DNA from: Batkoa obscura
Taxonomy: Eukaryota
Assembly (NCBI GenBank): GCA_030770535.1
Contig: JASVEC010000023.1
Span: 434,001 to 498,000 of the forward strand
Length of the DNA: 64,000 nucleotides
Reading direction: 5' to 3'
Part shown: one piece after another, positions 3,304-45,398 of the stretch
Layout of the letters: every line of letters begins with the position of its first letter
Numbering within the stretch: the stretch's first letter is position 1
Position numbers and translations under genes: made by a program
Notes under the pieces: generated by a model
What the model was told of the DNA's origin: nothing
Databases searched by the model: none
The model's input: only the letters and a program-made list of their open reading frames with translations

Positions 3304-4209
3304 TTATTTTGAAATAAACTTATAAATCATGTCAACAACGTTTGCGTTTTGAGGTATGTTATTGTGATCTCCGAATTTATCATCTACTACTTGGATGTTA
3401 TTAAATCCTAATCCTTTTAGATGGGATGCGAATTCAGTTGTTTGTTCGGTATTTACCAGAGTATCTTCTTGTGAGTCAATTAATAAATATTTAGGTAGTT
3501 GATTATAACCTATATCATTTAATGATTCTTTTGAAACAAATTGAGGTGATGCTTTCTTCCATTTATTTATATCATCTCCAAATGCTGGTACAATGTATTC
3601 ATTCTTATAGCCTTTGTATCTATTAACTAAAGATGGAATATCAAATATACCACCAATAGAAATAACACCTTTAATATTTTTAAGTTGATTCAACTGTTTA
3701 TTATCATCAGTATAATTACTACCATCTAATGCCATTAAAGCACTCAAATGAGCACCAGCAGAATGACCACCTAAATAAATCTTATTATATCCTTTTAAAC
3801 TAAGTGTGATGTTTGTAAATCCATTTAACGAATCTTTTAAATGAGCTGGATGTTGTATATTTGATATCTGATTTTTTTGACTTAATCTATAATGTAAAAT
3901 AGCAGTAGTGATATTTTTTTCAGCTAATTTATTAGCCATAATTCTACTTGGCTCAATATCTTCACTAACCCAAGCACCACCTAATAACCAAACTAACAAT
4001 GGAGAATCCTTAACATTTGATTTTGGAGTAACTAACTCATAATAATTATTTTGTTTGCTATCATAGTTATATTTTGAAGTCATAATATATTCTACTTGGA
4101 CATCTGAAGTTGGGATAGCAGCATTCAGCTTTGTGACAGTGCCTGTAGGCCACATACCAATGACGAAAGTAGTCCATAATGTAAATAATGAGAAAGAAGC
4201 GAATTTCAT
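3304..4209 (-). CDS. Secreted alpha/beta-hydrolase (HSL family, kynurenine formamidase-like), 301 aa, intronless
   Basis: ATG at 4209 (the ORF track starts at a TTG). Hydrophobic N-terminus, LGGAW oxyanion motif, GHSAG nucleophile, DTLV acid and GDH histidine. Confidence 0.9.
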   Translation of the reverse strand: MKFASFSLFTLWTTFVIGMWPTGTVTKLNAAIPTSDVQVEYIMTSKYNYDSKQNNYYELVTPKSNVKDSPLLVWLLGGAWVSEDIEPSRIMANKLAEKNITTAILHYRLSQKNQISNIQHPAHLKDSLNGFTNITLSLKGYNKIYLGGHSAGAHLSALMALDGSNYTDDNKQLNQLKNIKGVISIGGIFDIPSLVNRYKGYKNEYIVPAFGDDINKWKKASPQFVSKESLNDIGYNQLPKYLLIDSQEDTLVNTEQTTEFASHLKGLGFNNIQVVDDKFGDHNNIPQNANVVDMIYKFISK

Positions 4210-5543
4210 ATTCAAATCTACAACTGATTTTTTTCTAATTTGTTATGCTATTGTTCTTGCAATTTTGTGGCTTATTTATACTTTTCGAAGATAGCGTTAT
4301 TATTCCCCTAAGAACCTTAATTTGATAAATCTCTTTAGGTTAAACTAATGTTTATATTATCATAGAATGAATACTGTATTACATAAGGTTGTAGCCCTTA
4401 AGTATTATCGCAATTATTCAAATAAACTATTTTTTATATTATTTAACTTCAAAAATAGAAATTTTTCTCCATTTAAAGAATAAAACTTTAAAATATTCAG
4501 ATGGGTAAATTAGTTTAATAAAAAGCGACCTTGAATGAAATGAAATTAAAAATATTAATATTGCCCATGAACCTTTATTTTATTAAAAAAAATAATTAAA
4601 AAATAAAGTTTATAAACTTAAATTATAACTTTTAATTTCTTTATAGCTTATATTAAAAAAATTGATTTCAATTTTACCGATCTATATTTGGAATTTTATA
4701 GTTACTTAATATATGTGTTTTAATGAATTAAATAACGCTATTATCCTTATTGCTATTATTCAATTTAAACATTTAATACGCCCATTAATAAAATTTTTAT
4801 TAAACTATATTCAATATGACTTTTTTTTACTTAAAAGCTTTGTATATTACAACGAGTTACTATAAGCCCTAATTCATATTAATTAACAATCACCTAATTA
4901 TAGTATGCTGGGTCAAATTAATTTTGTATTTCATTTATATATTTATGGTATGTAACATCGTATTAATAATAAGTATAGCTTTTTTTTTGGTTTTACCCGA
5001 TATGAACCATATTATTAATTTATTTTTCACAATACAAATGAGTTGTTTTTGATACAGTAAATATATGGGCTATTATTATTAGTACCGGGTTTATTTTTAG
5101 GGATTTATTTAATTCAATGAAGTGTTACTTAATTGAATTTCGCATTTAATGGCACAATTTTCGATTTGATTAATTAATTTTATAAATTTTATAGCTTTCG
5201 AAAATAGCAACCTTTATCTATTAACCTTAAGCTGACTCGACTTATCTTCTCTTCTGCATATATTATGTCTAATTCATAATTTAGAACTATGAAGTTCAGA
5301 TATCTTTTTTAAGTAATAAAATAATATTTATTTGCATAAAGAAATGAAAAAAGTTGATTGAACATAGAAAAACAAAACTTGTAAGATACAAAATAAGTCA
5401 TATAGGATCAAGAAGGTTTACTAATACCTCAAATTTTTAAGGATTGCTTCATAATCTCTAATTCGATATTTCATTTATTATATCAACCAGTTGAGTAGAA
5501 ATAGCATTTGTAAAATATATTTCTTAAACTTCCGTAAAAACAA

Positions 5544-6376: not shown

Positions 6377-7080
6377 ATATAGACGCAATAAATATGTTTT
6401 CTTAAACATATAAATTGAATTTAGTATATTAACCCACATCATAAGATTTTATAATAAAGTTTGCTAAATTTATTAAAAAATTAATATAATGATTGTCATA
6501 TTTAGATACTATTGGTTTGGGTGAAAAATGGCATAAATTTTAATATAAACACTGTCATTTTTCGAACTTGAAGAATAATAAAAGGCAATTTAAAATAAAT
6601 CATTTTTAATTTATTATTAATGGGGAGTAATAGTATATATTTTATAAAAGAATGTAGTATTGCTATTTGTTTATATTTGAATTTTTATGATGTTTTGGTT
6701 TTGATGTATCATGTTCGAATATGATGTTTTTGTTGTTGGATCATTTTTATATTGTAGTTTTGTATAATTTGGAATTTAAAACTACTAGTTTTCTTAGTAA
6801 TTGAAATATATTAATTTAGATTCAAATGCTCCAAACACAATAATTGAAGTCATTTTGTATATTAATAATAAAAATATCAAACCAAAGTTTATTTTTTAAA
6901 TAGAGCTAATAAAAAGTAGTGTAGTTCTGGTTAAAGAATAAAAATTCTAAATTGTAAAAATGAAATATTAACTAATAAAATAGATGAAGATTATGAGCAC
7001 TATATGATTAACAAACCTGATTAAAAAAAACCATAAACTATATATAGCAGAAAAAATGAAACAAAATAAGGTCAAACAAC

Positions 7081-7983
7081 ATGAAGTTAAATAACACTTT
7101 ACTCTTGACTTTTGTATGGATTGCTTCAATCAATAGTGTAGTTATTGGAACCACTGCAACAAACAGTAGCCCCAGTTCAACTCTTATATCTCATCTGAAA
7201 TCTATTGTTACTTCAAAATACGATTATGGAAGTGATGAAAATAATTATTATGAGTTAGTTACTCCAAAATCAAATGTTAAGGATTCTCCATTGTTAGTTT
7301 GGTTATTAGGTGGTGCTTGGGTTAGTGAAGATATTGAACCAAGTAGAATTATGGCTAATAAATTAGCTGAAAAAAATATCACTACTGCTATTTTACATTA
7401 TAGATTAAGTCAAAAAAATCAGGTATCAAGTATACAACATCCAGGTCATTTAAAAGATTCGTTAAATGGATTTACAAACATCACACTTAGTTTAAAAGGA
7501 TACAATAAGATTTATTTAGGTGGTCATTCTGCTGGTGCTCATTTGAGTGCTTTAATGGCATTAGATGGTAGTAATTATACTGATGATAATAAACAGTTGA
7601 ATCAACTTAAGAATATTAAAGGTGTTATTTCTATTGGTGGTATATTTGATATTCCATCTTTAGTTAATAGATACAAAGGCTATAAGAATGAATACATTGT
7701 ACCAGCATTTGGAGATGATATAAATAAATGGAAGAAAGTATCACCTCAATTTGTTTCAAAAGAATCATTAAATGATATAGGTTATAATCAACTACCTAAA
7801 TATTTATTGATTGATTCTCAGGAGGATACCTTGGTGAATTTAGAGCAAACGCTTGAATTCACAACTCACTTAAAAAGATTGGGATTTGCTAAAATTCAAA
7901 TAGCAAGTGGTGTATTTGGAGATCACAACCTTATCCCTCAAAACACAAACGTTGTTGATAAGATCTACAAGTTTATTTCGTAG
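7081..7983 (+). CDS. Secreted alpha/beta-hydrolase paralog, 300 aa
   Basis: Signal-peptide-like N-terminus and the same catalytic motifs; core near-identical to paralogs. Confidence 0.9.
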   Translation: MKLNNTLLLTFVWIASINSVVIGTTATNSSPSSTLISHLKSIVTSKYDYGSDENNYYELVTPKSNVKDSPLLVWLLGGAWVSEDIEPSRIMANKLAEKNITTAILHYRLSQKNQVSSIQHPGHLKDSLNGFTNITLSLKGYNKIYLGGHSAGAHLSALMALDGSNYTDDNKQLNQLKNIKGVISIGGIFDIPSLVNRYKGYKNEYIVPAFGDDINKWKKVSPQFVSKESLNDIGYNQLPKYLLIDSQEDTLVNLEQTLEFTTHLKRLGFAKIQIASGVFGDHNLIPQNTNVVDKIYKFIS

Positions 7984-8731
7984 TATTTACTACTTTAATA
8001 ATAAAAGATGCTTTACGTCTTTAAGTTGTACTTTATGATTTACAATTATTTATGAATAATATTTATAAACAAATGACATGTTTTCTCTTTTCCTAAAACT
8101 TTTTTTTAATCATATGAATTATGTTTTAAATTGCCGTTTTTTTTAAAAAATAATCAATAAAAGCAATGTTTATTGGTGTACTAACACAAATGTAACAGGT
8201 TAAAGGATTTCCATTACTTCATATTTTGTATGGTAGAAAAAGAAATGCCTTTCAAAATAATGAGTAAGGTTATCATAAATAAATTTTTACTTTAAAAATA
8301 GCAACAATGTAAACAGAATCATGAAAGTTTTCGTTAAAATATCGTATATTTTTAATATAACCATATTAAAAACCCGATGGTTATTAAAATTCACAGCATA
8401 ATAACATTTCTTAATAATATTTTATGATAGCGGCACGGCTTAATTAAGACCAATATATAGCAAGCGCCAAAAATTGAAGAAAAAGCACAGTTATACCAAG
8501 CAAAGATAAAGATTAAAAAACCATACAACGGGTAATTTAGATTCTGGTTGATAAATTCCAAAATAAGGTAGTAGGATATAGACAGGAACATAATAAATCG
8601 AAAAGTAATTAAAACGAATAGATCCAGGTATATGATAAAACATCTGACAATGGGCTAAGGTTCTTAGAGAAATAATGTCAATAAGTATAAAAAGGTTAAT
8701 AAAATAAAGCATAACAAATATAAACCTAAAC

Positions 8732-9619
8732 ATGCAATTATTTTATACTCTTTTAACTACATTATGGGTCTTTTCTGTGAAATCAATGTGGTACAACAAT
8801 TCCATGCCAGAACTTTTTGTTAATGCTAATAATATACAAAATATTGTTCCAAAATATTATTATCATAACAACCAAAATAATTATTATGAGTTAGTTACTC
8901 CAAAATCAAATGTTAAGGATTCTCCATTATTAGTTTGGTTGTTAGGTGGTGCTTGGGTTAGTGAAGATATTGAGCCAAGTAGAATTATGGCTAATAAATT
9001 AGCTGAAAAAAATATCACTACTGCTATTTTACATTATAGATTAAGTCAAAAAAATCAGATATCAAATATACAACATCCAGCTCATTTAAAAGATTCGTTA
9101 AATGGATTTACAAACATCACACTTAGTTTAAAAGGATATAATAAGATTTATTTAGGTGGTCATTCTGCTGGTGCTCATTTGAGTGCTTTAATGGCATTAG
9201 ATGGTAGTAATTATACTGATGATAATAAACAGTTGAATCAACTTAAAAATATTAAAGGTGTTATTTCTATTGGTGGTATATTTGATATTCCATCTTTAGT
9301 TAATAGATACAAAGGCTATAAGAATGAATACATTGTACCAGCATTTGGAGATGATATAAATAAATGGAAGAAAGTATCACCTCAATTTGTTTCAAAAGAA
9401 TCATTAAATGATATAGGTTACAATCAACTACCTAAATATTTATTAATTGACTCACAAGAAGATACTCTGGTAAATACCGAACAAACAACTGAATTCGCAT
9501 CCCATCTAAAAGGATTAGGATTTAATAACATCCAAGTAGTAGATGATAAATTCGGAGATCATAACAATATACCACAAAACGTAGATGTTGTTGATCGAAT
9601 TTACAAATTTCTTGTATGA
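8732..9619 (+). CDS. Secreted alpha/beta-hydrolase paralog, 295 aa
   Basis: Same motifs; C-terminal part shared with the 3304 copy. Confidence 0.9.
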   Translation: MQLFYTLLTTLWVFSVKSMWYNNSMPELFVNANNIQNIVPKYYYHNNQNNYYELVTPKSNVKDSPLLVWLLGGAWVSEDIEPSRIMANKLAEKNITTAILHYRLSQKNQISNIQHPAHLKDSLNGFTNITLSLKGYNKIYLGGHSAGAHLSALMALDGSNYTDDNKQLNQLKNIKGVISIGGIFDIPSLVNRYKGYKNEYIVPAFGDDINKWKKVSPQFVSKESLNDIGYNQLPKYLLIDSQEDTLVNTEQTTEFASHLKGLGFNNIQVVDDKFGDHNNIPQNVDVVDRIYKFLV

Positions 9620-10474
9620 TATTTCTTACTACATAAATAAAACTATTTATTGAAATAGTTTATACGACTATTGTCATATATTGGTTGATTCATTGTTTTT
9701 TGTTTAGATATCGTATGTATTAAAATACCTGATAAACTCTTTTGTTTATTATAAGCGGAATTGCACTCATCTTATTTTTTCAAGCCAATCCTTAATGATA
9801 ACGAGCCTGACCCATCAAATTTATCCAGCCTAGTAAAAAATTTGACTTTGACATAAAATTTTAATCAAAAAGCTATGCTTGATTGGGACAAAGTTTTTTG
9901 ATAACTTGGTACCTAGAGGGTTGATAATGATATAGCTACATTTTTGGGGGGCTATATGGCGAAAAAATGCTACTATTATATTGGAAATAATAAATGAGTA
10001 AAAAAATGTTATTTTATTTAAGAGTAAAGTATTTTTATGCTTAATCTTATAAAATCTTAGTTTTTAAAAAAACTATATTAAACAAACTTATATCCTTTTT
10101 AATATAAACTGGTTAAATTCGTGAGATAAAAATTACAAAATTTATAAATGCTAGGATATTATTAGGGGCTGTCCTAATTGGTTTCAGAATCTACTTAGAA
10201 ATTAATCCAAATTTAAAATTCCAAGTTTGTGTTCAATATAACGGTTAAATCTAAAAAGCCTAAAATTAAATGTCTCTATTTAAAACTTATTTTAATTGTT
10301 TCCTTTTCTTAAATAGCTAATTTTCCTAACTATATATTTTATGTTAGTTCTGTTAGATATTTAACAGATATATAATATATAACTATATGATTATATAATT
10401 ATATAAATACATAATTATATAAACACAGTTATTTGACTTTATTTGACTTTATTTTTTGTTGAAATAAAAATAAA

Positions 10475-12178
10475 ATGCAAACTTTCATAACTAAACTTCG
10501 AAATGGAATTTTTGAAAACTTCAATACAATAGGGAGGAGTACACAATATAAACATTGTAATTCATTTACATCAATTTTAAAAGCTACTTATAACAACCCA
10601 AGGTTCATGGAATTTTATAATAAAACAAAACAAAGAAAAGATATATTATCAAAGTTTACTATCGATAATAATAAACTTAATCAAGTAATGTATAAAATTA
10701 GTGCTTTAAGGGAAACAGGAAACAAAAGTCAGCAAGTAGCGTTATTATCAACTATAGCTTCAGTATATTCTTTTGATGAATGTAAGAGTTTTGGGTTTAA
10801 TATAAATAGAAATCAATATGATTATTCAAAAACAAGTAATAATAATAAAATATCAACATTAAAACCTATTATTAAAAATACAAAAAAAATTAAAGATGAC
10901 CAAATTGAAACTATCATACAATATTTACTAAATGATTCAACTATTTCATCAAGATTTAATAAAAAAAATAACGATAGTAAATATTCATCAGATAATATAT
11001 ATATATTAAATAAAAGTAGAAGAATGATATATAGTAAATATTTGAATGATCTAAGAGATAAAGCAGTAGCTAGGTCAACGTTCTTTAAATATATACCAAG
11101 TAATTTCAAAAATCCAGCAAGAAAAACGGATCTATGTAATATATGTACCCAGTATACAGTTAGGAAAAAGTTATTTGAAAATAAAATAAATACAGCAAAA
11201 AACAAAACAGAGATAGAAGAAATTTTCAACGAAGAAGAAAAGTTATACAAATTACATAAATTCTGTGTTGATACTCAAAAAAACACATTTAATGAAACTA
11301 TCAAAAAATTAAATAACAAAAGTTGTATAATAGTTTTAGATTTTAAACAAAATATGGAAATAGGGACAAGACCAGATTCAATAAATCTAGATCATTATAA
11401 TAAACAAGCTATATCAGTATTAGGCTTTGGTGTATTATATTTAAAAGATGATAAAACAATAGGCAAAGTTTACTTTGATTATTTATCTGAAATATTGAAT
11501 CATGATTCAGCATATGCAGGAGATTGTTTAATCGATTTAATCTCTACAGAGCTTCTATTTAAAAAGTTTACAAAAATTAATATATGGGCAGATACAGGAA
11601 ATCATTTTAGATCCCAAGAGTTCTTACATTATATGTTTAAAGAAATTCATAAAATAAATAGTAGTTTGAATGTTAATCTTAATTTTTTTGCTGAGCATCA
11701 TGGAAAAAGTATAGTTGATGGACATTTTGGAAACCTTTCAAAATGGAAAAGTAGTTTTGAAGCGTTAGGTAAAATAGAAGATATCGATCAATTAATTTCA
11801 AGATTTGAGGCTTTTATTTGTGAGCATAATAAAATTAATAACTCGACTGTTAATAATGGGAAAACAGATATAATTTTTAAAAAGTATAAAAGAAACAAAA
11901 ATACAAAAAGAATAATAGAGATGCAGGGCATTAAGAAGTATTTACACTTTATTAAACATAACAATAAACTACATTGTTATCCAGTATCTGATACATCAAA
12001 AAAAAGCGATATAGTCCCAATTAAAGTTATAGAGTCTATAGAAAACAGAAAAATTAAAAGATCGATCCCAGCTTACCTTACGAAGATAACAGAGAATTTA
12101 AAAATTTCGATATTTACTAAGCAAGTAAGTAGTTTGTTGAATGATAGAAATAGATTGTTAAATGTTAGGATTACTTAA
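10475..12178 (+). CDS. DDD-type transposase (Sola superfamily-like), 567 aa
   Basis: Motifs KTDLCNIC..H, VLDFKQN, IWADTGNHFR and FAEHHGKSIVDGHFG; ORF enclosed by TIRs. Confidence 0.85.
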   Translation: MQTFITKLRNGIFENFNTIGRSTQYKHCNSFTSILKATYNNPRFMEFYNKTKQRKDILSKFTIDNNKLNQVMYKISALRETGNKSQQVALLSTIASVYSFDECKSFGFNINRNQYDYSKTSNNNKISTLKPIIKNTKKIKDDQIETIIQYLLNDSTISSRFNKKNNDSKYSSDNIYILNKSRRMIYSKYLNDLRDKAVARSTFFKYIPSNFKNPARKTDLCNICTQYTVRKKLFENKINTAKNKTEIEEIFNEEEKLYKLHKFCVDTQKNTFNETIKKLNNKSCIIVLDFKQNMEIGTRPDSINLDHYNKQAISVLGFGVLYLKDDKTIGKVYFDYLSEILNHDSAYAGDCLIDLISTELLFKKFTKINIWADTGNHFRSQEFLHYMFKEIHKINSSLNVNLNFFAEHHGKSIVDGHFGNLSKWKSSFEALGKIEDIDQLISRFEAFICEHNKINNSTVNNGKTDIIFKKYKRNKNTKRIIEMQGIKKYLHFIKHNNKLHCYPVSDTSKKSDIVPIKVIESIENRKIKRSIPAYLTKITENLKISIFTKQVSSLLNDRNRLLNVRIT

Positions 12179-12179
12179 G

Positions 12180-12540
12180 TTATTAATAGCTAAGTTAATA
12201 AATAGTCAAAGAACAAGTAACTGTAATAATATGTAAAAACTATTATTACTTGTACTATATAGGGATGGTCAATTATAGTTTTGGGGCTGACCACTCCCTC
12301 CCATGCAGCTATTTATTAACTTGGCAATATATTAATAATGTAATTATAACATTAAAGTAGTTTATTTATTTGATAATAAATCTACAATGTTGGTTATAAA
12401 GCAGTTGATAATAAATATTTCTCAATTAAGCTTTATAAGAACATGTATTTAAGATCTAGTAGAAATTCAACTAACTTACAGTATGAGCTATAATATAATG
12501 GTTTAGAACTGTGTTTGGGTACTTTTGTTTTAATAAAAGA
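12180..12540 (+). ncRNA. Candidate structured RNA downstream of the transposase stop
   Basis: At least seven hand-derived stems with G-U pairs on the + strand; pairing-preserving substitutions in relic copies. No expression evidence. Confidence 0.55.
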
Positions 12541-12864
12541 TGTGATTTTATAGAATTTTAAGCGAAGTTTTTAAAATACAAATTTTTTTAAAATTGGATA
12601 AAATAATGAAACTAATTCAGACAACCCCATTAGCTAAAATTATAATAAACTTGTAATATTTTCTAAATAAAAGTTAAAAATTATTTATGTTTTTTTTATA
12701 TTTTAGTCTATTTTAGTTTTAATAAAATTGCAAATTAAACCGTATATACTATAAAATAATTATTTATTACAATATTTTTTTATCGAGTGTTTAATTAGTA
12801 TTTCTTTAAACTTTAGTATATAGTTTATTATAAATTTCATAGCTAGTAAAAAAAATAAAGATAT

Positions 12865-12964
12865 GGGGATGTATTTTGTATTTTTAAGAATTTTACTAAC
12901 AAACTTTCCGCTTAAATAGCGCTTAAAAAATGGAAAAGATAATGAAGTCAAAAAAAGCACTCCC
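12865..12964 (+). mobile_element. MITE
   Basis: Consensus match. Confidence 0.9.
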
Positions 12965-13802
12965 ATGTTTAAAAAATAATTTAGTAACTTTTCGATTACT
13001 TGATAAGGATTTATAAAATTTAACACGACAATCCTAATATTAAACTACCATACTATTAAGTTTAATAAATTTAATAAATTTTATTGTGTAGTTGAAAAAC
13101 AAACAATTCTGAAATTTATTATTATTTTATGCTTTTTTAATGCTCCGGTTTTATAAATTGCTTACTCTTCAACTACTCAATAAAATTTTAATAAACTTCC
13201 ATCAGATAGTTAAAAAATTATTAAATTATCACAAAAACTTTTAGTGAACTCTATGTATCAAAAACATAAAAAAGCGAAATTAAAAAATTTTATTTTGATT
13301 TTAACCAGGCTTTTAAGCCTACTCATATTCGAAATAGAGGTTATAATTTTATTAAAAAGTCATCATTTTTAAATCAAACTTTTAGCTAATAGTTCTCCTA
13401 TCTTATACAATTCTGCCTCTTTTCTATTTTATCTCTGAGTAAACTTATATAAAGCATAGTTTAAGCCTGTTGAATATGACTTGCTCAAGTTTAAAGTAGG
13501 AGCTTGTGCTTTAGAGTATTTTTTCTAATTGAATAATCTATTCCGCTACATCCTCCTACCCCTGTCTTATATAACTTATCCCATTTTTCACTTGAACAAT
13601 TTTTATATTACGATTTAAATGAAACTTAATAATTTCGCACCCTTTGGTTTTGTAAACAGTTAACAACTTACAACATTTAAGATAAAAGATAGTTGATATT
13701 AATAAAACCAATAGCTCGATGTTAAGCCTGTTGTTTAATCCTGGTTAACTAGGATGTTAAAAACGCTATAAAATGGCATAAAGCTACATTTAGTATATAT
13801 AT

Positions 13803-13902
13803 GGGGATGCATTTTTGTGTTTAAGAATTTTTCTAACAAATTTTCCGCTTAAATAGTATTTAAAAAGTGGAAAAAATAATGAAGTTGAAAAAAAGCACTT
13901 CC
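13803..13902 (+). mobile_element. MITE
   Basis: Consensus match; TSD ATAT. Confidence 0.9.
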
Positions 13903-14815
13903 ATATAGTTAATTTAAATTAATAGATTTTGAATCCAGAATCAATCAAATAAGGAAATAAAATACAACGGTGGTTGAAAAGTTTATCTTAACATATAAAT
14001 ATGGTATGTTTAATATTTAAACTACAGGATTCCTTTTAGAGAGAACAAGCTTTATCTTTTTAATGTCCTATCTGCTAGCAAAAAACTATCTTTGATCAAA
14101 AAATTTATAAAAGCACAACTCAAAAATAAATATAAATAGTAAAACGCTTTTGATCAAAAAGCACTACTGGCAAAAACTACATTAACCTATTTTATTGTAT
14201 TAATTAAAGTATATAACGTTTTAAAACAATTTGATCCATAGAGTAACAAAAGATCTTTGAAATATAGTTTAGTAATCGGAATATCTTATTTTTTTATAAA
14301 AAATAGTCGGAAGTAAAATTTAGCAATGGAAATAGCCATATATATAAGTTAAGGTTTTTATAACCTCAATAAAAATGTGAAGACCCATAATCTGGAAAAG
14401 AAGCTTTGAAAATAATTTTGAACTTATTATTATAATCCATATCTACACTGGGCTAGTAAACCGAAAGCCTCTTATCTACATATATCAGCTATTTGGGATA
14501 GCTTTTGTTTTTTATAATAGATTAGAGCCATACCAATTGCTCAGTGTATACTAATATTATACTTTTTTCTTCAAAGTCTTGCCTTTCATTATAAATGCAA
14601 TCACATGAACTACTACAAGCATTTTAATAAATTGGTTCTTAGAAATAATATGATATACTTATAATTAGAAATTATATAAACACAAATAGTAATAAATGGC
14701 TATATAAAAAACGATGGGCTCATGTTTATCCTCTTTTCAATGAATTTATATAATGGATTTTATAAATTAGTAATGTAAACCCATTGACCTGAATTGCGAA
14801 ATTGTGAAACTATAT

Positions 14816-14905: not shown

Positions 14906-16545
14906 ATATAAATCTTAGAAAAAATAAAATAGAAGTGTGAACTAAGGCTCATAGTAATTAATAGTAAGTTTAGTTTTTTTTAAAACTTATTTTTGTGTAC
15001 ATTATGAAGTTCAGTTTTTGAAACTTGATCCAGGAGTAGTTGTCCTAAATAGGCCAAAGTAAAGACAAAAAGACTGAGTACATGTAGTGTTTCCATTAGT
15101 ATTTAAATGTAATATGCACTAATCTACCTCTATCTTTTTTCATTAAGGTTAAGATATTAAATTTGATCATAATTGGTTACTAATCATGAAGTTTTATAAA
15201 GGATTTTGAGGGTTTGTATAGTAATATACTTAGCTCATCGATTTTTTATTATTTTGTCAGATAAAGATAATTTGTATCTATTGACACGTTTTAATACTAG
15301 GGCAGGACGCTTCCTGCGCTGAGTCTAATTGTCTCGTTTACCGAAATTTATAAATTACTACCATTTGTTTTTAAGTGAAAGGCTGCTATATAACAACTTC
15401 TACATGATTTTAAAAGCTTATATTTTAATTATTGTACGTTTTAACGTAATTTTTGTATATTTATAGATATGTCATAGGGTGAAATTCCCATCCCAAAATA
15501 ACATTTTCAAAATTGAGATTTAGGTTACAAAACAATCTCAAGTTCAATTAGACTTAATTATTAATTAATAAACCATTAAATTATTCTTGGTAATTGGAAG
15601 CAGTCATAGCACCACAAAACGCTCCAATACCTTTATATTATAACACTAATACATTGAAATTCAATAAACTTAAATCAAATCTAGAATTATCTAATTGAAG
15701 ACTAGTTTATATATTACAAGGAGAAATAGTTTATAATAATTGAATTATATCTTTTTTGAAAAGTAAAATTGCATCTGTCTGTATTTTATAATGAAAAATT
15801 GTTAATTTTAGACTGGAATTGAATCAGTTAGTGGGTTATAATGAATAGTGAAAAAGTAGCACCGTGTATAAACTTTGTAAAACCTAAAGATGTTATGTTA
15901 AAGCTAGTACTGATCTGAAATTTGGGCACATAACTTTAATCTAATAACTAAAATATATTATATAATAATAAGGTAAATGGCTCCAAATTATCAAAAAAAG
16001 GTGATATGGTTGTCTATTCTGATTTTGATTATAACCCATAGTTTTTATTTGGGTATTTATATCAAATTAATATCAATCGAAACTAAATATAGAATAAGAA
16101 TCAATTGTTTAAATCCGAATGATAAATCAAGATTATAACTGTAGTATTTTTTATACATTAAAGTACCTTTTTTTTTTGAACCTTATTTTTTTATAAACTA
16201 TTTTACATAAAATACATTCTACAATGAGTTAAGCAATACATACTAAAACGTATATGAGTTGGCTTATTTCTTATTTAATACAGCAGCTTTCCTGAATGCT
16301 ACTTAAGGATAACTAGTTTATAGATAATTTAGTATGGAAATGATAAAAGCGACAATACTAGCATAAATTTATTGATAAAGTGAGCTTACTAAATCAATAT
16401 CAAGCTTATGAATAAAAAAGAACTTATAATTTTTGATCCTTAAGCACAATCACTTTATTAATAAAATGTTAAATTTGGTCTAAAAAAAGGAACAAAGCTC
16501 ACAATATAAAACGAGGAGAAAGTAATAAATTATTAACAAAATAAA

Positions 16546-17445
16546 ATGTTTTATAGAGCAATAATCACACTCTCTATTTATATTGGATTATCAACATGTA
16601 TTTGGCCCACTGCTATTATAAAAAATATCTCTACTCCAACTTTGAGAACTGTAGTAGATGTTATTGATACTCCGAAGTATTATTATGACAGCAACCAAAA
16701 TAATTATTATGAGTTAGTTACTCCAAAATCAAATGTTAAGGATTCTCCATTGTTAGTTTGGTTATTAGGTGGTGCTTGGGTTAGTGAAGATATTGAACCA
16801 AGTAGAATTATGGCTAATAAATTAGCTGAAAAAAATATCACTACTGCTATTTTACATTATAGATTAAGTCAAAAAAATCAGGTATCAAGTATACAACATC
16901 CAGGTCATTTAAAAGATTCGTTAAATGGATTTACAAACATCACACTTAGTTTAAAAGGATACAATAAGATTTATTTAGGTGGTCATTCTGCTGGTGCTCA
17001 TTTGAGTGCTTTAATGGTATTAGATGGTAGTAATTATACCGATGATAATAAACAGTTGAATCAACTTAAAAATATTAAAGGTGTTATTTCTATTGGTGGT
17101 ATATTTGATATTCCATCTTTAGTTAATAGATACAAAGGCTATAAGAATGAATACATTATACCAGCATTTGGAGATGATATAAATAAATGGAAGAAAGCAT
17201 CACCTCAATTTGTTTCAAAAGAATCATTAAATGATATAGGTTACAATCAACTACCTAAATATTTATTAATTGACTCACAAGAAGATACTCTGGTAAATAC
17301 CGAACAAACAACTGAATTCGCATCCCATCTAAAAGGATTAGGGTTTGATAGTATTCAAATTACAAGTGGTAAATTTGGAGATCATAATTTAATTCCCAGA
17401 AATAGAAACGTTACAGAGCATATTTTTAAATTTATAAATAATTAA
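16546..17445 (+). CDS. Secreted alpha/beta-hydrolase paralog, 299 aa
   Basis: Signal-peptide-like N-terminus and the same catalytic motifs. Confidence 0.9.
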   Translation: MFYRAIITLSIYIGLSTCIWPTAIIKNISTPTLRTVVDVIDTPKYYYDSNQNNYYELVTPKSNVKDSPLLVWLLGGAWVSEDIEPSRIMANKLAEKNITTAILHYRLSQKNQVSSIQHPGHLKDSLNGFTNITLSLKGYNKIYLGGHSAGAHLSALMVLDGSNYTDDNKQLNQLKNIKGVISIGGIFDIPSLVNRYKGYKNEYIIPAFGDDINKWKKASPQFVSKESLNDIGYNQLPKYLLIDSQEDTLVNTEQTTEFASHLKGLGFDSIQITSGKFGDHNLIPRNRNVTEHIFKFINN

Positions 17446-17749: not shown

Positions 17750-18369
17750 CACTCTTATAGTTAAACATTAAAATAAAATTTAATCTTGACTTTTTTCTTC
17801 TATAAAAATTTGTAATTTTATTAAATAAATTTCTAAATAAGCTATTTGTTTTAATTAAAATAGAGGTTGTTTATTTTTAATATTTTTTTAACAGTTTATT
17901 ATTACAATAAAAATTGAATTTATTAACTTTAAATTTGAATAAGCTATTATGAAACATCTCTTTATCAGCTCTATGATTGATTATAACATAACAATCACTT
18001 AAGTTGCCGTGTTCTTAAGTTTAGACACAATCAATCCCAAGCCTTTATTTTGATTTGCTATGATAGTTTCTGTTATGTGATTCCAAAGGATATTATCTCC
18101 CCGTTTTGATATACATACTTGTTAAAGTATAAAAGAGGTTTTAGAACATGGTAACTTAGGACCTTTTAATTGGAATATTCCCTAACATTGTACCTTTAAT
18201 AAAGTCACTAAATCTTTTTGGTAATATTTCATGTGGATTTTACAGTAGTATTGTTTATTATATTTGTCTTACATAATCTATAGCCTATTATGTGCTATTT
18301 TTATAATTTAAATCTATGTCAGTTACACAAACTAATATCTTTTGACTTCAACTACTGAGTATCAGATTT

Positions 18370-18845
18370 CACGATAGTAAATTATAGTTTCAAAGTTAAT
18401 TATTCCCTTCTGTACAGCTATTTGTTAACTTAATTATAAATCAATAATATCATATAATATTATAATCGTTTCTATATTTGTTCAATAGTAAATCTGGGAT
18501 ATTGACCATAAAGCAGCTAGTGATAAATATTTTTAATAAAGCTTTGTAAGAATATATATTTATCTCCATATTATAGCTGTAATTAGTATTAATACATGGG
18601 TTATACTAGCAAAATTTTTGCCAATATAAACAATTTTTGTTAAATTTAGTAGGAATTCTGCTAAACAGATATGGGGATGTATTTTTTAAGAATTTTACTA
18701 ACAATCTTTCCGCTTAAACAGCGCTTAAAAATGGAAAAGTAATGAAATCAAAAAAATATCCTCATATGTACTGTAATAAATAATATAAAACTGTCAGATA
18801 TTTTTGTTTTTAATAAGGGATTTATTTTTATAAATTTTTTAGTTC
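18370..18845 (+). mobile_element. Old relic of the Sola-like 3' non-coding region, interrupted by a MITE
   Basis: Colinear similarity to 12260-12600 (e.g. CAGCTATTT.TTAACTT, ATAAAGCAG, AAGCTTT.TAAGAA). Confidence 0.7.
18673..18763 (+). mobile_element. MITE inside a Sola relic
   Basis: Consensus match; TSD ATAT. Confidence 0.9.
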
Positions 18846-19174: not shown

Positions 19175-19960
19175 TTTAAATGAAATTAAAAAACTGGTCA
19201 ATAGCGTTTGAACTCTGAAGTATAAGATAATAATCCCCAAACTTACTATGGACTATCTCTGGATATTATTGAATCTCAATCCTTTTAAATAAGATGCAAA
19301 CTAAGGTGATTGTTTCGAGCTAAATAAATTGCTTTCTTGTAAATCAATTGATAAATAGTTGGGCAGCTAATCATAGTTTATTTTTTTTAATGATTCTTTT
19401 GAAACAAATTGAGGTGATGCTTTCTTCCATTTATTTATATCATCTCCAAATGCTGGTATAATGTATTCATTCTTATAGCCTTTGTATCTATTAACTAAAG
19501 ATGGAATATCAAATATACCACCAATAGAAATAACACCTTTAATATTTTTAAGTTGATTCAACTGTTTATTATCATCGGTATAATTACTACCATCTAATAC
19601 CATTAAAGCACTCAAATGAGCACCAGCAGAATGACCACCTAAATAAATCTTATTGTATCCTTTTAAACTAAGTGTGATGTTTGTAAATCCATTTAACGAA
19701 TCTTTTAAATGAGCTGGATGTTGTATACTTGATATCTGATTTTTTTGACTTAATCTATAATGTAAGATAGCAGTAGTGATATTTTTTTCAGCTAATTTAT
19801 TAGCCATAATTCTACTTGGTTCAATATCTTCACTAACCCAAGCACCACCTAATAACCAAACTAACAATGGAGAATCCTTAACATTTGATTTTGGAGTAAC
19901 TAACTCATAATAATTATTTCCATCACTTCCATAATAGTGCTTTGGAGTAATAGTAGGACC
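19175..19960 (-). pseudogene. Alpha/beta-hydrolase pseudogene
   Basis: Core near-identical to paralogs; TAG at 19367 replaces Gln; further stops in the decayed C-terminus; no in-frame ATG or signal peptide upstream. Confidence 0.85.
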
Positions 19961-20499
19961 ATTATTGGAATTAAATAAATTATAATCCTAAATTCTAAAA
20001 CCCTTTTTTGAATTAATTCGATTAAAGACTTCTATGTATATAGGATCATTTGAACCAATTTTTATTAAATCAAAGTTAGTTTATTTAGTAAACTTTTATA
20101 TTTAAAAATACTGTCTAGTTTATAGAGCTTTTTCTGCTTTGCGCCATGAAAGTGACTCTGTCGATTTAGAAGTTAAGTATGAATGATAAATATCCTTTTT
20201 ATTTAATAGATTAATTAAAAGTAAATCTTTACCATTTGATTATATATATCAGTATTTATTTGTTATTTAATTCTAAAAAGAGCTTTATGAACATTGCTAT
20301 AATTCCTAAATTTTACTATTTTTTAAATTTTTGATACAATAAACTAAATATAAATTCAATATTTATTACATTCTAATATGATTATCTAAAACTTATAAGT
20401 AGTTTAACAAAAAATTACAAGCATCGTAAAATAATTAACTGTTTGAAATCTCAATAAACTTTACATCAACCTAACTACGAGTACAAAAAATAATGACAT

Positions 20500-24820: not shown

Positions 24821-25854
24821 ATATGGTATTTTTAGATCTTAAATAATTATTAGATTTATTAAGGTAATAGCAAAAAACTAACCTGTATTTCTCAATGGTT
24901 GAAAATTTATGTAATATGTTAATATGGATGAAACATAAAGCTGTGAAGTCATAAGTCACATTGAATACAACATAATGTATTTAATGGATGATATCAGTCA
25001 AAAGTTAAAAAAAATAGAAGTCCCTAGTTCTATGCTTAATTATAATTTAATAATATCTTAAAAGAAATTCTTGCTCTATTTTAAAGCACTTCCTGTTTTG
25101 ATATTATTTCATTTTGGAAAAAAATGCGAGAATAACTATATAAAACAATTTATTCAAATTTGAACCCTTTTTTAACATGTTAGGGGCGATTACAAAAAAT
25201 ATAAGAGAATAAAAGAATCGGACAATGATACTTGGAAAGAAGTGTTGATTTCAACTAGTCAATTTATTAAAATACTTTGAAATACCACGGCATCATATGC
25301 TTATAGTTTTTAAATAAATATCTCTATTAACCTTTAAAATATAAGATAAAATTACAATCATTACTCTACAGAAACCCTCACTAATTTTATAAGAATTGTT
25401 AGGTTTAACAGATTTAATAAGAAATGATTTAGAGAATAGAGTTTATTAGAAAATCATTAATTCCTCTTATTAGACTGTTTATTAGTACTAATGAGCATCA
25501 GTCCCTTGAACTTTCATTTTATATAAATATTAAATAAAAATTAAAGTAGCCATATATTTTTTAAAAGATGTATCAGCACAAAAGCAATTTAATTTAGATA
25601 TAAATAAAGTTTATAATTCAATAATTGCTATTTAATAGGTCATAGTTTATATATTATATTAATATGAAATCTTAACTGGGGAATCGAAAATTAGGTATAG
25701 TAAGATATATAATATCAAACCAACATTACAACTTACACAAAAAGGATGTAAATCGAGAATTCAAAATAGTATTATGAATTAAAAGATCGATTGATTAAAG
25801 TCGAAGAAAGAAAATATTTACATAAAAATCTAATTTTTTATTTTAAATAATAGT

Positions 25855-26445
25855 TTAAACATCAATAGAGAATCTGTTACAGGTATTTTGACAGTCTTCA
25901 ATAGTCTTGAAACCAAGACAACCATCATCACAACCGCCAAAAGTTGATTTGATACATTTTTCAGTAGCAATATCAAAGTGGTAAGATTCAACACCCATGC
26001 GACATTTACCAGTTTCGGTTTTGACAAAGCATCTAGCTGGTACATCTTCAAATTTCTTCTTCATTGTTTTTGGCTTAGAGACTTTACATTGACTTTGGGA
26101 GAAAGATGGCATACCAGTTGGGTCAACTGGGTCAATAGTAAATTTGACACAGTTATATTCACAATTAGATTTAGTATCAAAAGCTTGACAACCATCATTA
26201 CATCCTCCAAACAATGCTTTTTCACATTGACCAGTTTTAACATTATAATGATAACTATCATTACTACCACGACATTTACCAGTTACAGTAGGGATAAAGC
26301 ATTTATAGCTTATATCTTGTTGATGGAACTTAAGTGGACCAGTATAAGAAGTAGCACATCCACCTTGTGAGAAAGGCTCAATTAATGGAAGAGTAGAAGC
26401 AAGGATAGAAGAGAAAGCAGATAAAAGTAAGACTTTAGTGTACAT
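25855..26445 (-). CDS. Secreted two-domain Kunitz/BPTI-type inhibitor, 196 aa (P1 Arg/Arg)
   Basis: Signal peptide; two C-x8-C-x15-C-x7-C-x12-C-x3-C units with FGGC. Confidence 0.9.
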   Translation of the reverse strand: MYTKVLLLSAFSSILASTLPLIEPFSQGGCATSYTGPLKFHQQDISYKCFIPTVTGKCRGSNDSYHYNVKTGQCEKALFGGCNDGCQAFDTKSNCEYNCVKFTIDPVDPTGMPSFSQSQCKVSKPKTMKKKFEDVPARCFVKTETGKCRMGVESYHFDIATEKCIKSTFGGCDDGCLGFKTIEDCQNTCNRFSIDV

Positions 26446-27662
26446 AATTGATATTATTATAGTTATTGATATTTGATAATTTTAAAATGGTATAAACTAT
26501 TTATTTATATAGTATTTTAAACTCACCTAGAACATTCGAAATAATAATGATTATACGTTTTATCCAGATGATTTACTTTCTACAAATCCCCAAAATAACA
26601 AATATTGGATAATTTATTTATTATTATTGTTTTACCGCTCTCTATAAACAAGTAGAAATAGAGTGATTTCTATGTGTTGCGCTATTAAATCAAGAGCTTA
26701 TTTATAGTTAATTGATCAATTGAAGTAATTTTAATTTCTAATAGAATTTTATGTCTACAAAGAATATTATATAAATAAACATATCAATTCAATGTTACAT
26801 GTTCTAGGTTGAATTTTAATAACACCATTATAATTTAATGAGAATTCCAAGAGAAATAGGATAATAGGATATACTATATTTATAATACAAAACTATGTGA
26901 TATTTTATTTTAAAAGGAACTACTACTACTTTTTAAGGGATTTTTCGGTTTTGACATTTGTTTTCGGGATTAGTTATTAAGAACATCTTTTAAAATAATT
27001 TATCCAAAATTGAACCTTTGTGTTTGACGTATGCTAAAATCAATTATAAAACAACCAAGCAGAGAAGATCCAAAGCATAATATATTCAATATTAACAAAT
27101 GTTTTAAAATCAGATTGATTGTTATACGGTTATACAATTATATTTCTCGAATTAAAATTAAAATATCAAAATACGGTATAGATATTACTACCATCATTAG
27201 TAATCAAAAACCATAGTTAATTTTATAACAATGATTTTCTGCTCAAGTTATAATGAATACTTTATCTATATTCTTGAAAAGGCATACATCCAAGTCGTAA
27301 GTTTCTATAAGCTCAATGTTCATTTGTCTATTTATATATATATATTAGCGCAGATAAATATGAACATCTTTTTTACTACTTTATTTAGAAGGAATGCTAA
27401 AATTATAGCATATCTTAATAAAAACAGTTTACATTGAAAACCGATTTATTTTATATATGAATTTCAACGTTGTAAATTGAGTCTTTTTTTGATATTTCAT
27501 GTTTTTGGGCTCTACCAGATGTAAAAAACATTGAATGTTAGACTTAAAATTTAGGCTTTTATATATAATATGATATACCAAATAAAAGATACCAATTCTA
27601 AAAAGTATAAGTTATAGTATCAGAAAATAATTATGAGTTAAAAAGATAATATGCCAATATGT

Positions 27663-27760
27663 GGGAGTGTTTTTTTCGACTTCATTATTTTTTCCATTTT
27701 TTAAGCACTATTTAAGCGGAAAATTTGTTAGCAGATTCTTAAACACAAAAACATATCCCC
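27663..27760 (-). mobile_element. MITE (in left palindrome arm)
   Basis: Consensus match. Confidence 0.9.
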
Positions 27761-27833
27761 ATATGTTCATATATTAATATATAATGAGATAAATGTTTAT
27801 ATAAAAATCTAATTTTTTATTTTAAATAATAGT

Positions 27834-28424
27834 TTAAACATCAATAGAGAATCTGTTACAGGTATTTTGGCAGTCTTCAATAGTCTTGAAACCAAGACAA
27901 CCATCATCACAACCGCCAAAAGTTGATTTGATACATTTTTCAGTAGCAATATCAAAGTGATAAGATTCAACACCCATACGACATTTACCAGTTTCGGTTT
28001 TGACAAAGCATCTAGCTGGTACATCTTCAAATTTCTTCTTCATTGTTTTTGGCTTAGAGACTTTACATTGACTTTGGGAGAAAGATGGCATACCAGTTGG
28101 ATCAACTGGGTCAATAGTAAATTTGACACAGTTATATTCACAATTAGATTTAGTATCAAAAGCTTGACAACCATCATTACATCCTCCAAACAATGCTTTT
28201 TCACATTGACCAGTTTTAACATTATAATGATAACTATCATTACTACCACGACATTTACCAGTTACAGTAGGGATAAAGCATTTATAGCTTATATCTTGTT
28301 GATGGAACTTAAGTGGACCAGTATAAGAAGTAGCACATCCACCTTGTGAGAAAGGCTCAATTAATGGAAGAGTAGAAGCAAGGATAGAAGAGAAAGCAGA
28401 TAAAAGTAAGACTTTAGTGTACAT
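27834..28424 (-). CDS. Secreted two-domain Kunitz inhibitor (P1 Arg/Arg)
   Basis: Protein identical to the 25855 copy. Confidence 0.9.
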   Translation of the reverse strand: MYTKVLLLSAFSSILASTLPLIEPFSQGGCATSYTGPLKFHQQDISYKCFIPTVTGKCRGSNDSYHYNVKTGQCEKALFGGCNDGCQAFDTKSNCEYNCVKFTIDPVDPTGMPSFSQSQCKVSKPKTMKKKFEDVPARCFVKTETGKCRMGVESYHFDIATEKCIKSTFGGCDDGCLGFKTIEDCQNTCNRFSIDV

Positions 28425-29664
28425 AATTGATATTATTATAGTTATTGATATTTGATAATTTTAAAATGGTATAAACTATTTGTTTATATAATATTTTGAA
28501 GTAGTAGAAATTTCTAAAATAAGTAGTACTGATTTATTTTTTGAATATGGTTTTTTATTTCCAAATCCCCAAAACATATATAATATTAGTATAACCTGTT
28601 TTTTATTTTTATTTTCATTTTTATTTTACCACTTTCTATAAGCTTATAAAAAATATACCAGTTACTATAAAAGTAAGTATGACTCTAAAGAAGTGAAGTC
28701 AGATAATTCTTTAATAAAAAGTTATTTATAAAAAAGTGGACCCTTATTTTGTAAAGATTCTACCATATCTAAATGCGGAATTGATTTATGATATGCATAT
28801 TGTAAACATTTATCCCTAATTTTGTTTTATTAGGATAATCTCAAAACTGTTTTATTAGAGCTATTCTTACCTTTTTCGCACCTTTGATTTTTGTTATAGA
28901 TGAATGACCTTAAACTGAGAAAAAATATTCACTAAAATATTTATCATAGTATATTATTAATTTGACTTCAAATAAAAATAAATTTCCTTAATGAGATTAG
29001 AAATATAATTGTGTTAAAAAGCAATATACTATTATAGAACATCATCACATAGTGGTTATGGTTTATAAATAAAAATAAAAATAAAAATAAAAACAAAAAG
29101 CGTTATTTTTATTATTTATTATTATTCATTATTGTTTATTAAATTCTAGAATTTCAATTTCAAATTCAAATTCATTAATGAAAATATCTTTTGTTTATCC
29201 TAATATTATGATCTGATTATTAGCATCTAGAATGGCTTTTTATAATAATTAGTAATATAGGTATTATATTAAAAAATCAAATTAAATAATTTAGTATAAA
29301 CAAAAGTAAAATCTTTAAATAAACATTTTATATTGTGTTTAATAAAAGCTTGAGAAAAAATCCCAAAATTCACGTTATAATTCTAAAAACATGAGCATTT
29401 TTTCTTTTGTAAAAAAATTGATGACAAATTACACAAATTTTGAATAAAGCTTTATTGTTAAATTTACAACGTGATTTTTTAGTGAAGTTACTTTCTCAAA
29501 TTAGAGTCAAATTTCATGACCTAAATAAGTTTGCTAAAGTTCACTTATTTTAAAGAAAAACATCTCGTGGTTACATTTTAGAAATAGCAAATATAGCAAA
29601 TATAGAAAAGATCAATAAGTTGTAAAATTAAGTATCATCTAAGTTTTATTATTAAATATCAATT

Positions 29665-30255
29665 TTAAACATCAATAGAGAATCTGTTACAGGTATTTTG
29701 ACAGTCTTCAATAGTCTTGAAACCAAGACAACCATCATCACAACCGCCAAAAGTTGATTTGATACATTTTTCAGTAGCAATATCAAAGTGGTAAGATTCA
29801 ACACCCATACGACATTTACCAGTTTCGGTTTTGACAAAGCATCTAGCTGGTACATCTTCAAATTTCTTCTTCATTGTTTTTGGCTTAGAGACTTTACATT
29901 GACTTTGAGAGAAAGATGGCATACCAGTTGGATCAACTGGGTCAATAGTAAATTTGACACAGTTATATTCACAATTAGATTTAGTATCAAAAGCTTGACA
30001 ACCATCATTACATCCTCCAAACAATGCTTTTTCACATTGACCAGTTTTAACATTATAATGATAACTATCAAAACTGCCATAGCATTTACCAGTTACAGTA
30101 GGGATAAAGCATTTATAGCTTATATCTTGTTGATGGAACTTAAGTGGACCAGTATAAGAAGTAGCACATCCACCTTGTGAAAAAGTATTGATTAATGGAA
30201 GAGTGGAACCAAGAACGGTAGAAAAAGCAGATAAAATTAAAGCCTTAGAGTACAT
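29665..30255 (-). CDS. Secreted two-domain Kunitz inhibitor (P1 Tyr/Arg)
   Basis: Same Cys pattern; domain-1 loop KCYGSFD. Confidence 0.9.
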   Translation of the reverse strand: MYSKALILSAFSTVLGSTLPLINTFSQGGCATSYTGPLKFHQQDISYKCFIPTVTGKCYGSFDSYHYNVKTGQCEKALFGGCNDGCQAFDTKSNCEYNCVKFTIDPVDPTGMPSFSQSQCKVSKPKTMKKKFEDVPARCFVKTETGKCRMGVESYHFDIATEKCIKSTFGGCDDGCLGFKTIEDCQNTCNRFSIDV

Positions 30256-38214: not shown

Positions 38215-38805
38215 ATGTACTCTAAGGCTTTAATTTTATCTGCTTTTTCTACCGTTCTTGGTTCCACTCTTCCATTAATCAATACTTTTTCACAAGGTGG
38301 ATGTGCTACTTCTTATACTGGTCCACTTAAGTTCCATCAACAAGATATAAGCTATAAATGCTTTATCCCTACTGTAACTGGTAAATGCTATGGCAGTTTT
38401 GATAGTTATCATTATAATGTTAAAACTGGTCAATGTGAAAAAGCATTGTTTGGAGGATGTAATGATGGTTGTCAAGCTTTTGATACTAAATCTAATTGTG
38501 AATATAACTGTGTCAAATTTACTATTGACCCAGTTGATCCAACTGGTATGCCATCTTTCTCTCAAAGTCAATGTAAAGTCTCTAAGCCAAAAACAATGAA
38601 GAAGAAATTTGAAGATGTACCAGCTAGATGCTTTGTCAAAACCGAAACTGGTAAATGTCGTATGGGTGTTGAATCTTACCACTTTGATATTGCTACTGAA
38701 AAATGTATCAAATCAACTTTTGGCGGTTGTGATGATGGTTGTCTTGGTTTCAAGACTATTGAAGACTGTCAAAATACCTGTAACAGATTCTCTATTGATG
38801 TTTAA
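38215..38805 (+). CDS. Secreted two-domain Kunitz inhibitor (P1 Tyr/Arg)
   Basis: Mirror of the 29665 copy. Confidence 0.9.
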   Translation: MYSKALILSAFSTVLGSTLPLINTFSQGGCATSYTGPLKFHQQDISYKCFIPTVTGKCYGSFDSYHYNVKTGQCEKALFGGCNDGCQAFDTKSNCEYNCVKFTIDPVDPTGMPSFSQSQCKVSKPKTMKKKFEDVPARCFVKTETGKCRMGVESYHFDIATEKCIKSTFGGCDDGCLGFKTIEDCQNTCNRFSIDV

Positions 38806-40636: not shown

Positions 40637-40709
40637 ACTATTATTTAAAATAAAAAATTAGATTTTTATATAAACATTTATCTCATTATATATTAATATA
40701 TGAACATAT

Positions 40710-40807
40710 GGGGATATGTTTTTGTGTTTAAGAATCTGCTAACAAATTTTCCGCTTAAATAGTGCTTAAAAAATGGAAAAAATAATGAAGTCGAAAAAAA
40801 CACTCCC
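40710..40807 (+). mobile_element. MITE (in right palindrome arm)
   Basis: Mirror of the 27663 copy. Confidence 0.9.
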
Positions 40808-45397: not shown

Positions 45398-45398
45398 G

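Follow-up and report, generated by a model that had tools for sequence, protein, structure and literature searches.

Behind the stop codon of a transposase gene in Batkoa obscura lies a stretch of DNA that folds better than its shuffled controls, and the question is whether it encodes a functional RNA, how far this RNA would extend and what it might do for the element that carries it. The initial annotation had described a conserved, covarying structured RNA of about 350 nt and had named a trans-acting cofactor and a regulatory 3' UTR as its possible roles. Here the whole surrounding stretch of 64,000 nucleotides was analysed (contig JASVEC010000023.1, positions 434,001 to 498,000), which is called the window below and whose own coordinates are used throughout.

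A Sola2-type transposon and its copies

The element is present in the window as two young copies and three relics:

10165-12628, plus strand: young copy 1 of the Sola2-type DNA transposon, intact, 2464 bp
10161-10164 and 12629-12632: 4-bp target site duplication (TSD) ATTA of young copy 1
10165-10190, plus strand: left terminal inverted repeat (TIR), 26 bp, matching the right one at 20/26 positions
12603-12628, minus strand: right TIR, 26 bp
10475-12178, plus strand: transposase ORF in a single frame, 567 aa from the first ATG, with TAA at 12176-12178
43384-45847, plus strand: young copy 2, 99.15% identical to copy 1, TSD ATTT
42989-43383, minus strand: relic A, 3' part with its own right end, about 77% identity, core match at 43224-43288
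45852-46231: relic A, coding part
46329-46750, plus strand: relic B, 3' end of a sister copy, about 87% identity, core match at 46423-46487
18260-18600, plus strand: relic C, about 72% identity, core match at 18359-18423

The element has a single long sense ORF. Young copy 2 sits inside relic A, just 5' of the stop codon of this relic, and carries its core at 45477-45526. The two differences between the young copies that had been annotated in the structured region, at 12328 and 12386, were confirmed when the copies were compared. Sola2 elements, as Bao defined them in 2009, reportedly have short TIRs and GRG termini; the window element has 26-bp TIRs with GGG termini, and a related metagenome element described below, L001, has an inner TIR of 18 bp, also with GGG. 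PMC3627910 gives the Sola2 TSD as 4 bp long and AT-rich (AWWT). Both ATTT and ATTA in the window are of this kind, though ATTA departs from AWWT by one base.

Sola2 elements encode a DDD transposase with an RNase H-like fold. The structure predicted for the window protein (pLDDT 88.7) adopts an RNase H-like DDE fold, and the residues D293, D377 and D419 (P0001 numbering) are nearly invariant across 95 homologous sequences. The model matches IstA (E 2e-5) and the integrase and Mos1 cores (Z 10-11, rmsd about 3 A over 145-170 residues) and also resembles TnsB. No Pfam family matched the ORF, and its closest named relative is a protein of Neoconidiobolus thromboides (82% identity). Compared by eye with the dictyostelid Sola2 transposases of DFa-2 and PPa-1 in supplement S10 of PMC3627910, the protein agrees in the motifs FYK..P...K..DxC, DFKEN, SxxLNH and FWSDxxxHF. 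Judged from sequence and model, the Sola2-type label appears well founded because fold, DDD residues, TSDs, TIRs and these motifs agree. The closing helix of the motif starts 1 nt past the TAA, in line with the annotation of a motif right after the transposase stop.

With 1108 representatives at E 0.001, this transposase clade is a large one, and its members in the protein set P0003-P0158 include named ones from Neoconidiobolus, Conidiobolus and Smittium, whereas the passages of PMC5751038 that treat the subject list one fungal Sola2 case. In a transposase tree of 37 rows, from which the loci L010-L015 and proteins with fewer than 110 core residues were left out, the window protein falls in a group labelled 41/77 and L001 in a group labelled 82/90. 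A separate model of the last 111 residues of the protein (pLDDT 78) had no match at E 0.001, a result that says nothing either way on RNA binding.

Several minor features accompany these copies. An AT-rich palindrome lies upstream of the transposase ATG (10376-10425; z -5.3 on the minus strand). Young copy 2 in relic A (43380-43383/45848-45851) and a MITE at relic B (46329-46332) occupy homologous AAAT sites, which lie a few codons 5' of the end of the transposase frame and form an apparent hot spot of self-insertion. The two relics face each other head to head on either side of this MITE, which suggests a rearrangement. The MITE belongs to a family of about 100 bp with 23 matches across the window (e.g., 12865-12969, 13803-13904 and 46232-46328), GGGGATG ends and ATAT-type target duplications. 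The MITEs and the autonomous element are alike in only about seven terminal bases. The earlier argument that the structured region is dispensable in cis since the MITEs lack it has therefore little force.

A module shared with a distant element

From 12170 to 12545 the sequence folds at z -4.43 on the plus strand (0/100 shuffles as good) and at z -2.94 on the minus strand (1/100 as good); the energy gap between the two strands was equalled by 5 of 60 shuffles. The signal peaks in the 180-nt segment 12171-12350 (z -6.3), against a background of 66 segments on two strands in which one of the 132 folds reached z -5. The stems that had been drawn by hand were recovered to different degrees. The outer stem 12180-88/12330-38 is Watson-Crick in 9/9 pairs, the stem 12189-12206/12308-25 has 16 Watson-Crick and two G-U pairs, the hairpin 12261-71/12288-99 has a mean pair probability of 0.96 and the hairpin 12387-12444 is present in all three of its pieces. 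The stem 12213-20/12246-53 can form eight Watson-Crick pairs, but the computed fold picks another register for 12213-12256, and the hairpin 12357-85 appears in the minimum free energy (MFE) fold only. In the second multiloop both inner stems near 12478-12512 are present, but the closing helix 12445-53/12514-22 (five Watson-Crick and four G-U pairs) is doubtful, being absent from the MFE, centroid and MEA folds.

The covariation had originally been read from the relics. The three changes quoted are present in the sequence, but over all 88 pairs the preservation of pairing is at chance: with each relic's own substitution spectrum as the null model, two-sided changes number 1, 3 and 5 against 0.8, 3.6 and 4.5 expected (P 0.54, 0.73 and 0.47), and the pairs kept (74/86, 58/69 and 50/72) lie inside the null. 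The relics also fold no better than their shuffles (z -1.03, -0.36 and +0.26). They have lost 19-56% of their G/C sites through C-to-T/G-to-A change, and since such decay alone turns G-C pairs into A-U or G-U, the argument from relic covariation fails. The use of G-U pairs as evidence of pairing on the RNA strand failed as well, because the new one-sided changes in the relics comprise 20 G-U and 21 A-C. In relic C the decay favours CpA (20/31) over CpT (8/38), and the C-to-T/G-to-A decay is possibly a RIP-like or methylation signature in an early-diverging fungus.

Evidence for conservation came instead from outside the window. A metagenome scan over 39 of 64 parts gave at least 15 related loci; 7/15 end within or just past the ORF, and 8/15 are evaluable, with at least 100 nt past the next in-frame stop, an assignment that is uncertain where introns occur. 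The module was found in one of the eight evaluable loci, L001, the other seven being mostly more distant and without it. L001, a near-complete element whose transposase frame is open, shares 32% of amino acids and 48% of nucleotides with the window element in the coding region. Its ends differ from those of the window element, and its TSD, as the ends are read here, is ATAT. The ends of L001 are nested (1-44 and 2859-2904): the inner TIR of 18 bp is bordered by ATAT on both sides, and beyond it the inverted end of one related element follows on either flank, like an insertion at a head-to-head junction, although an assembly collapse could also have produced this picture. The comparison divides the 3' region as follows:

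12179-12339, plus strand: conserved module, z -7.0 on the plus and -5.2 on the minus strand, equivalent to L001 2166-2264
12180-12206, plus strand: 5' strand of the closing helix (9 bp + 18 bp), beginning 1 nt past the stop codon
12213-12256, plus strand: optional AU-rich hairpin of 44 nt, absent from L001
12258-12307, plus strand: sequence-conserved core, 43/50 nt identical to L001 2191-2242
12308-12338, plus strand: 3' strand of the closing helix, with a 4-nt bulge at 12326-29
12340-12540, plus strand: family-specific hairpins, absent from L001, z -2.25
12532-12537: AATAAA, which may be a poly(A) signal

In L001 the TAA is followed by a 7-bp plus 12-bp helix, the core and the 3' strand of the helix, making a module of about 100 nt, and in both elements alike the helix starts 0-1 nt past the TAA. 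Compared with L001 in a first register, the closing helix has five pairs changed on both sides, one changed on one side, five unchanged and one open in the window; in a second register the numbers are six two-sided, one one-sided and five unchanged. The two-sided changes, transversions included, fall in the inner 11-12 pairs, and a 12-bp stem at the site of the closing helix arose in 10 of 10,000 shuffles. The whole 3' regions of the two elements align with a score of 64 (shuffles 37 +/- 5, 1/2000 as high). A profile built from the window copies only, over the whole 3' region, had one significant match in 17 loci (49.7 kb), namely L001 2198-2246 (E 0.0021), and a covariance model of the window cores alone found L001 at E 0.0015, with model boundaries that were set after L001 had been seen. 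Further downstream, 12340-12627 is without similarity to L001 (score 30 against 34 +/- 5 in shuffles), and four segments of L001 behind its module reach z values of only -0.6 to -2.2. Because the similarity is limited to the module, the conserved unit is 12179-12339, and the proposal of a 350-nt unit has to be given up. A conserved, covarying structured motif thus stands by comparison with L001, though not by way of the relics, and it measures about 160 nt with a core of about 50 nt; the alignments support a module of 100-160 nt counted from the stop codon.

These data also bear on the possibility that the region has no function and consists of AT-rich inverted repeats, a nested foldback element or an exchanged fragment. 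Whole relics decay like neutral DNA, the comparison has n=2 and about 200 of the claimed 350 nt are unshared, all of which would fit such an origin. However, a recent exchange or a nested MITE would share the outer inverted repeat, whereas here the outer part differs yet is compensated and the inner loop is kept, and the window-only profile found its match (E about 0.002) at the expected position. We consider lack of function very improbable. Structured RNAs usually have a variable periphery, optional hairpins and a conserved, loop-rich core. The core identity of 86% beside a transposase identity of 32% and changed ends points to a selected function of an RNA with an uncatalogued fold. The case is one of two independent families and three decayed copies.

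Core, predicted pseudoknot and end-like words

In the core, a central stem of 6-7 bp carries a loop of 16 nt, and the 3' segment is rich in pyrimidines. The core also contains a further pairing that the fold in the initial annotation did not have:

12266-12293, plus strand: central stem 12266-71/12288-93 with its 16-nt loop, 29/30 cells paired in five sequences
12282-12303, plus strand: predicted pseudoknot of loop UGGG (12282-85) with CCCA (12300-03), 17/20 cells paired

UGGG/CCCA is the best extra pairing in both the window and L001 beyond the central and lower stems, CCCA lying 6-7 nt past the central stem. Three of the four pseudoknot pairs are changed on both sides in relic C, one of them from U-A to C-G, and two of the four are broken in relic A. 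Over ten core pairs, picked post hoc, the relics keep 26/30 cells (null 21.3, P 0.031) and have seven two-sided changes (null 2.4, P 0.005), and two changes run against the AT bias (null 0.13, P 0.007, likewise post hoc). The relics likely come from sister families whose core was once under selection and decayed later, to judge from these pairs.

Some words of the core resemble element ends. The word 12283-92 matches the left end at 9/10 positions, with 0.12 such matches expected window-wide, and the arm 12257-67 matches the junction of the MITEs at 10/11 (1/200 shuffles as good) and that of L001 at 7/11. The homologous arm of L001 (2190-2200) matches its own junction at 9/11 and the MITE junction at 6/11; as in the match of the window arm to the MITE junction, a mismatch falls on the first terminal base. 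These matches bring up the proposal, close to the cofactor of the initial annotation, that the transposase binds the module, either processed out or still within the mRNA, and that the module would aid the recognition or joining of the ends, in trans for the MITEs too. If so, the 5' arm would read a target-site-plus-end junction, change together with the ends and help the transposase both on its own ends and on MITEs. The two junction-like stretches (9/10 left end; 10/11 MITE junction) speak for this proposal, as does the better fit of each element to its own family's junction at one homologous site (10 vs 6; 9 vs 7), and the DFa-2 and PPa-1 transposases, the closest published ones, belong to Fanzor-carrying elements. 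However, the match of L001 to its own junction lacks significance when taken by itself (79-92 of 200 shuffles as good), the L001 loop is closer to the end of the window element than to its own, and the window arm fits the left junction of its own young element at 7-8/11 only. Shuffle tests are moreover inflated because the core is the sole G-rich spot in an AT-rich region. For the variable parts of the module, 9-mer matches to ends and flanks were confined to AT-rich words and the neighbouring relic. The protein is also an ordinary DDE transposase similar to IstA, integrases, Mos1 and TnsB, a class that reads element ends by protein domains. We therefore regard an RNA cofactor as quite unlikely and rank it below a regulatory 3' UTR.

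The same words could instead belong to a DNA site, i.e., an internal non-cleavable end-like or palindromic protein site with enhancer or autoregulatory action, whose folding would be incidental. Besides the end-like words, its near strand-neutral folding favours this explanation: the L001 module folds at z -4.5/-4.3 on its two strands, and DNA folding parameters give z values similar to those from RNA parameters. However, a DNA site leaves unexplained the joint change of the arms of a 12-bp helix that are 57-100 nt apart, the two-sided changes in the loop-to-3' pairing and the fixed start at the stop codon, and the MITEs are without the core. Its probability is distinctly small in our estimate.

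Possible roles of the module

Our preferred reading, to which we give a probability of roughly 0.4, is that the module may be a cis-acting 3' UTR element that protects or controls the transposase mRNA. The module would be transcribed on the plus strand, within a transposase mRNA whose end would lie close to the AATAAA at 12532; a place in the 3' UTR is suggested because the module, read on the coding strand, starts at the stop codon, about 200 nt before the AATAAA. In the mRNA it is predicted to fold into a pseudoknotted structure, and the compact tertiary fold would either act by itself or dock a conserved host factor of decay or termination. The persistence of the core at 86% identity, next to a transposase and ends that changed, favours an activity of the RNA fold or docking of a host factor over a site in co-evolution with the transposase. 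The putative role to which we commit is a decay block or mRNA stabilisation, by analogy with the ENE of TWIFB1 but with another fold. MITEs without the region are expected under a 3' UTR role too, because they make no transposase mRNA. Several observations count against the preferred reading. It is based on two independent families only, with 7/8 evaluable loci lacking the module; the strand-neutral fold of L001, the similar z from DNA parameters and the balance of G-U and A-C changes in the relics do not single out the plus strand; the likeness of the core to the ends of its own family is left unexplained; and the data fit stabilisation, self-cleavage and protein binding alike.

A stabilising RNA behind a DNA-transposase gene has a precedent, since an ENE lies behind the rice hAT transposase TWIFB1 (PMC13541005). 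The ENE/dENE is thus like the module in being a structured RNA behind a DNA-transposase ORF with a proposed cis action on mRNA decay. It differs in its defining trait, paired U-rich internal loops that capture poly(A), which the module lacks: the apical loop of the window module holds its single U4 run (12279-82), which no U-rich strand faces, and the module of L001 has no such run. The core of the module is by contrast G/C-rich with a loop-to-3' pseudoknot, and it starts at the stop codon, well before the likely poly(A) signal. Viral xrRNAs, which halt a 5'-3' exoribonuclease by means of a pseudoknot ring, offer a second comparison. They are small, stand at the start of the 3' UTR and have a loop that pairs with the bases following the stem on its 3' side; the module resembles them in these respects. 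Unlike them, it has no Rfam match, is nested in a long closing helix and is not viral, and its resistance would be putative.

The architecture would also suit a small self-cleaving ribozyme of a new class, which would cut the transposase mRNA immediately past the stop and thereby limit expression or set the 3' end. Several ribozymes of the twister, pistol and HDV-like types occur in mobile elements, and the module shares their build: it is about 60-100 nt long, its closing helix is variable, one hairpin is optional, and it has conserved bases in loop and junction and a pseudoknot. An activity intrinsic to the RNA would moreover leave the core independent of the divergence of the transposase. 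However, a search of Rfam 15 at E values up to 5 placed no family, known ribozymes included, on the motif of the window or L001; for the window it gave one weak snoRNA match that lies off the core, and for L001 it gave 17 weak matches to other parts of the element. The HDV-like descriptor had two matches upstream of the core on the plus strand of the window and none in L001, and the hammerhead word CUGANGA was not found. The module thus has no catalytic motif of the testable classes, and its host is a cut-and-paste DNA transposon. Loss of the poly(A) tail from the sole gene would presumably be costly. We consider self-cleavage unlikely.

In the initial annotation the motif had been likened to omegaRNAs and to IS110 bridge RNAs. 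With these it shares a structured non-coding RNA 3' of a mobile-element gene and end-like words in the core, but it comes without an RNA-guided nuclease or an IS110-type recombinase, lies off the element end and has no variable guide that we could find. The partner of the IS110 bridge RNA is an IS110-type recombinase, whereas here an integrase-like DDE transposase works with TIRs and TSDs. The loops of bridge RNA are complementary to donor and target and vary with them; here, end-like core words and a better own-element match at one site were found, with n=2 and an L001 match that is not significant alone.

For omegaRNAs, a more specific proposal is that the module is a Fanzor scaffold orphaned by loss of the nuclease gene. 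According to PMC3627910, Fanzor1 occurs in the 3' parts of DFa and PPa, both of them Sola2 elements, and by eye their transposases have the motifs of the window protein's clade. DFa-2 and PPa-1 further share with the window element a 4-bp AT-rich TSD and short imperfect TIRs (PMC3627910). The window element differs in being compact (2.46 kb), with one gene, without Fanzor and with a structured motif past the stop, for which we found no description in Sola. No frame longer than 52 aa is present in its 3' region or longer than 65 aa in that of L001, so a gene of Fanzor or TnpB size is absent from both. Between the core and the right end lie 321 nt in the window element and about 616 nt in L001, whereas the scaffold of a Fanzor omegaRNA extends to the right end and over the 3' TSD, with a guide drawn from the flank (PMC13565253). 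None of four twelve-letter core words occurred in the Fanzor element file, which gave one unrelated 9-mer. The omegaRNA analogy fails on these features and, like that with bridge RNA, is weakened by the ordinary DDE fold; we find an orphaned omegaRNA scarcely plausible.

Eukaryotic cut-and-paste transposons are treated as systems of protein plus DNA ends, and the descriptions of RNA parts that we found for this group concern ENEs and omegaRNAs that belong to passenger Fanzors. That this transposon clade encodes a functional RNA of its own in a stronger sense, as a new class of self-cleaving ribozyme or as a junction-reading cofactor of a DDE transposase, is doubtful but arguable. Self-cleavage would make the module a ribozyme of a new class, and guiding of the transposase would make the latter a DDE enzyme assisted by RNA; a module that only stabilises mRNA would still be a new 3' UTR element of transposons. 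The module is small and known in two natural versions, and cleavage, exonuclease resistance, stabilisation and transposase binding are all testable.

Further copies were sought in other collections. Among viral contigs, the protein search gave no further homologue with DNA, and motif searches gave 0, 2 and 2 matches, at four loci that all fail the model; prokaryote genomes, plasmids and phages held no further copy. An 11-nt look-alike of the loop past the stop of another metagenome locus, L007, had no model match and was rejected as chance. No description of a Sola-associated RNA motif was found in the open-access literature.

The remainder of the window is rich in duplications. A perfect inverted duplication of 5972 bp (25808-31779 and 36691-42662) is part of a gene array that encodes about ten Kunitz inhibitors, which have two domains and begin like signal peptides. 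Six alpha/beta-hydrolase (BD-FAE) paralogues (1-620, 3304-4242, 7060-7983, 8708-9619, 16537-17445 and 19367-19987) have near-identical cores and unrelated N-termini, suggesting gene conversion or shuffling, and three tRNA-Phe genes are interspersed among them.
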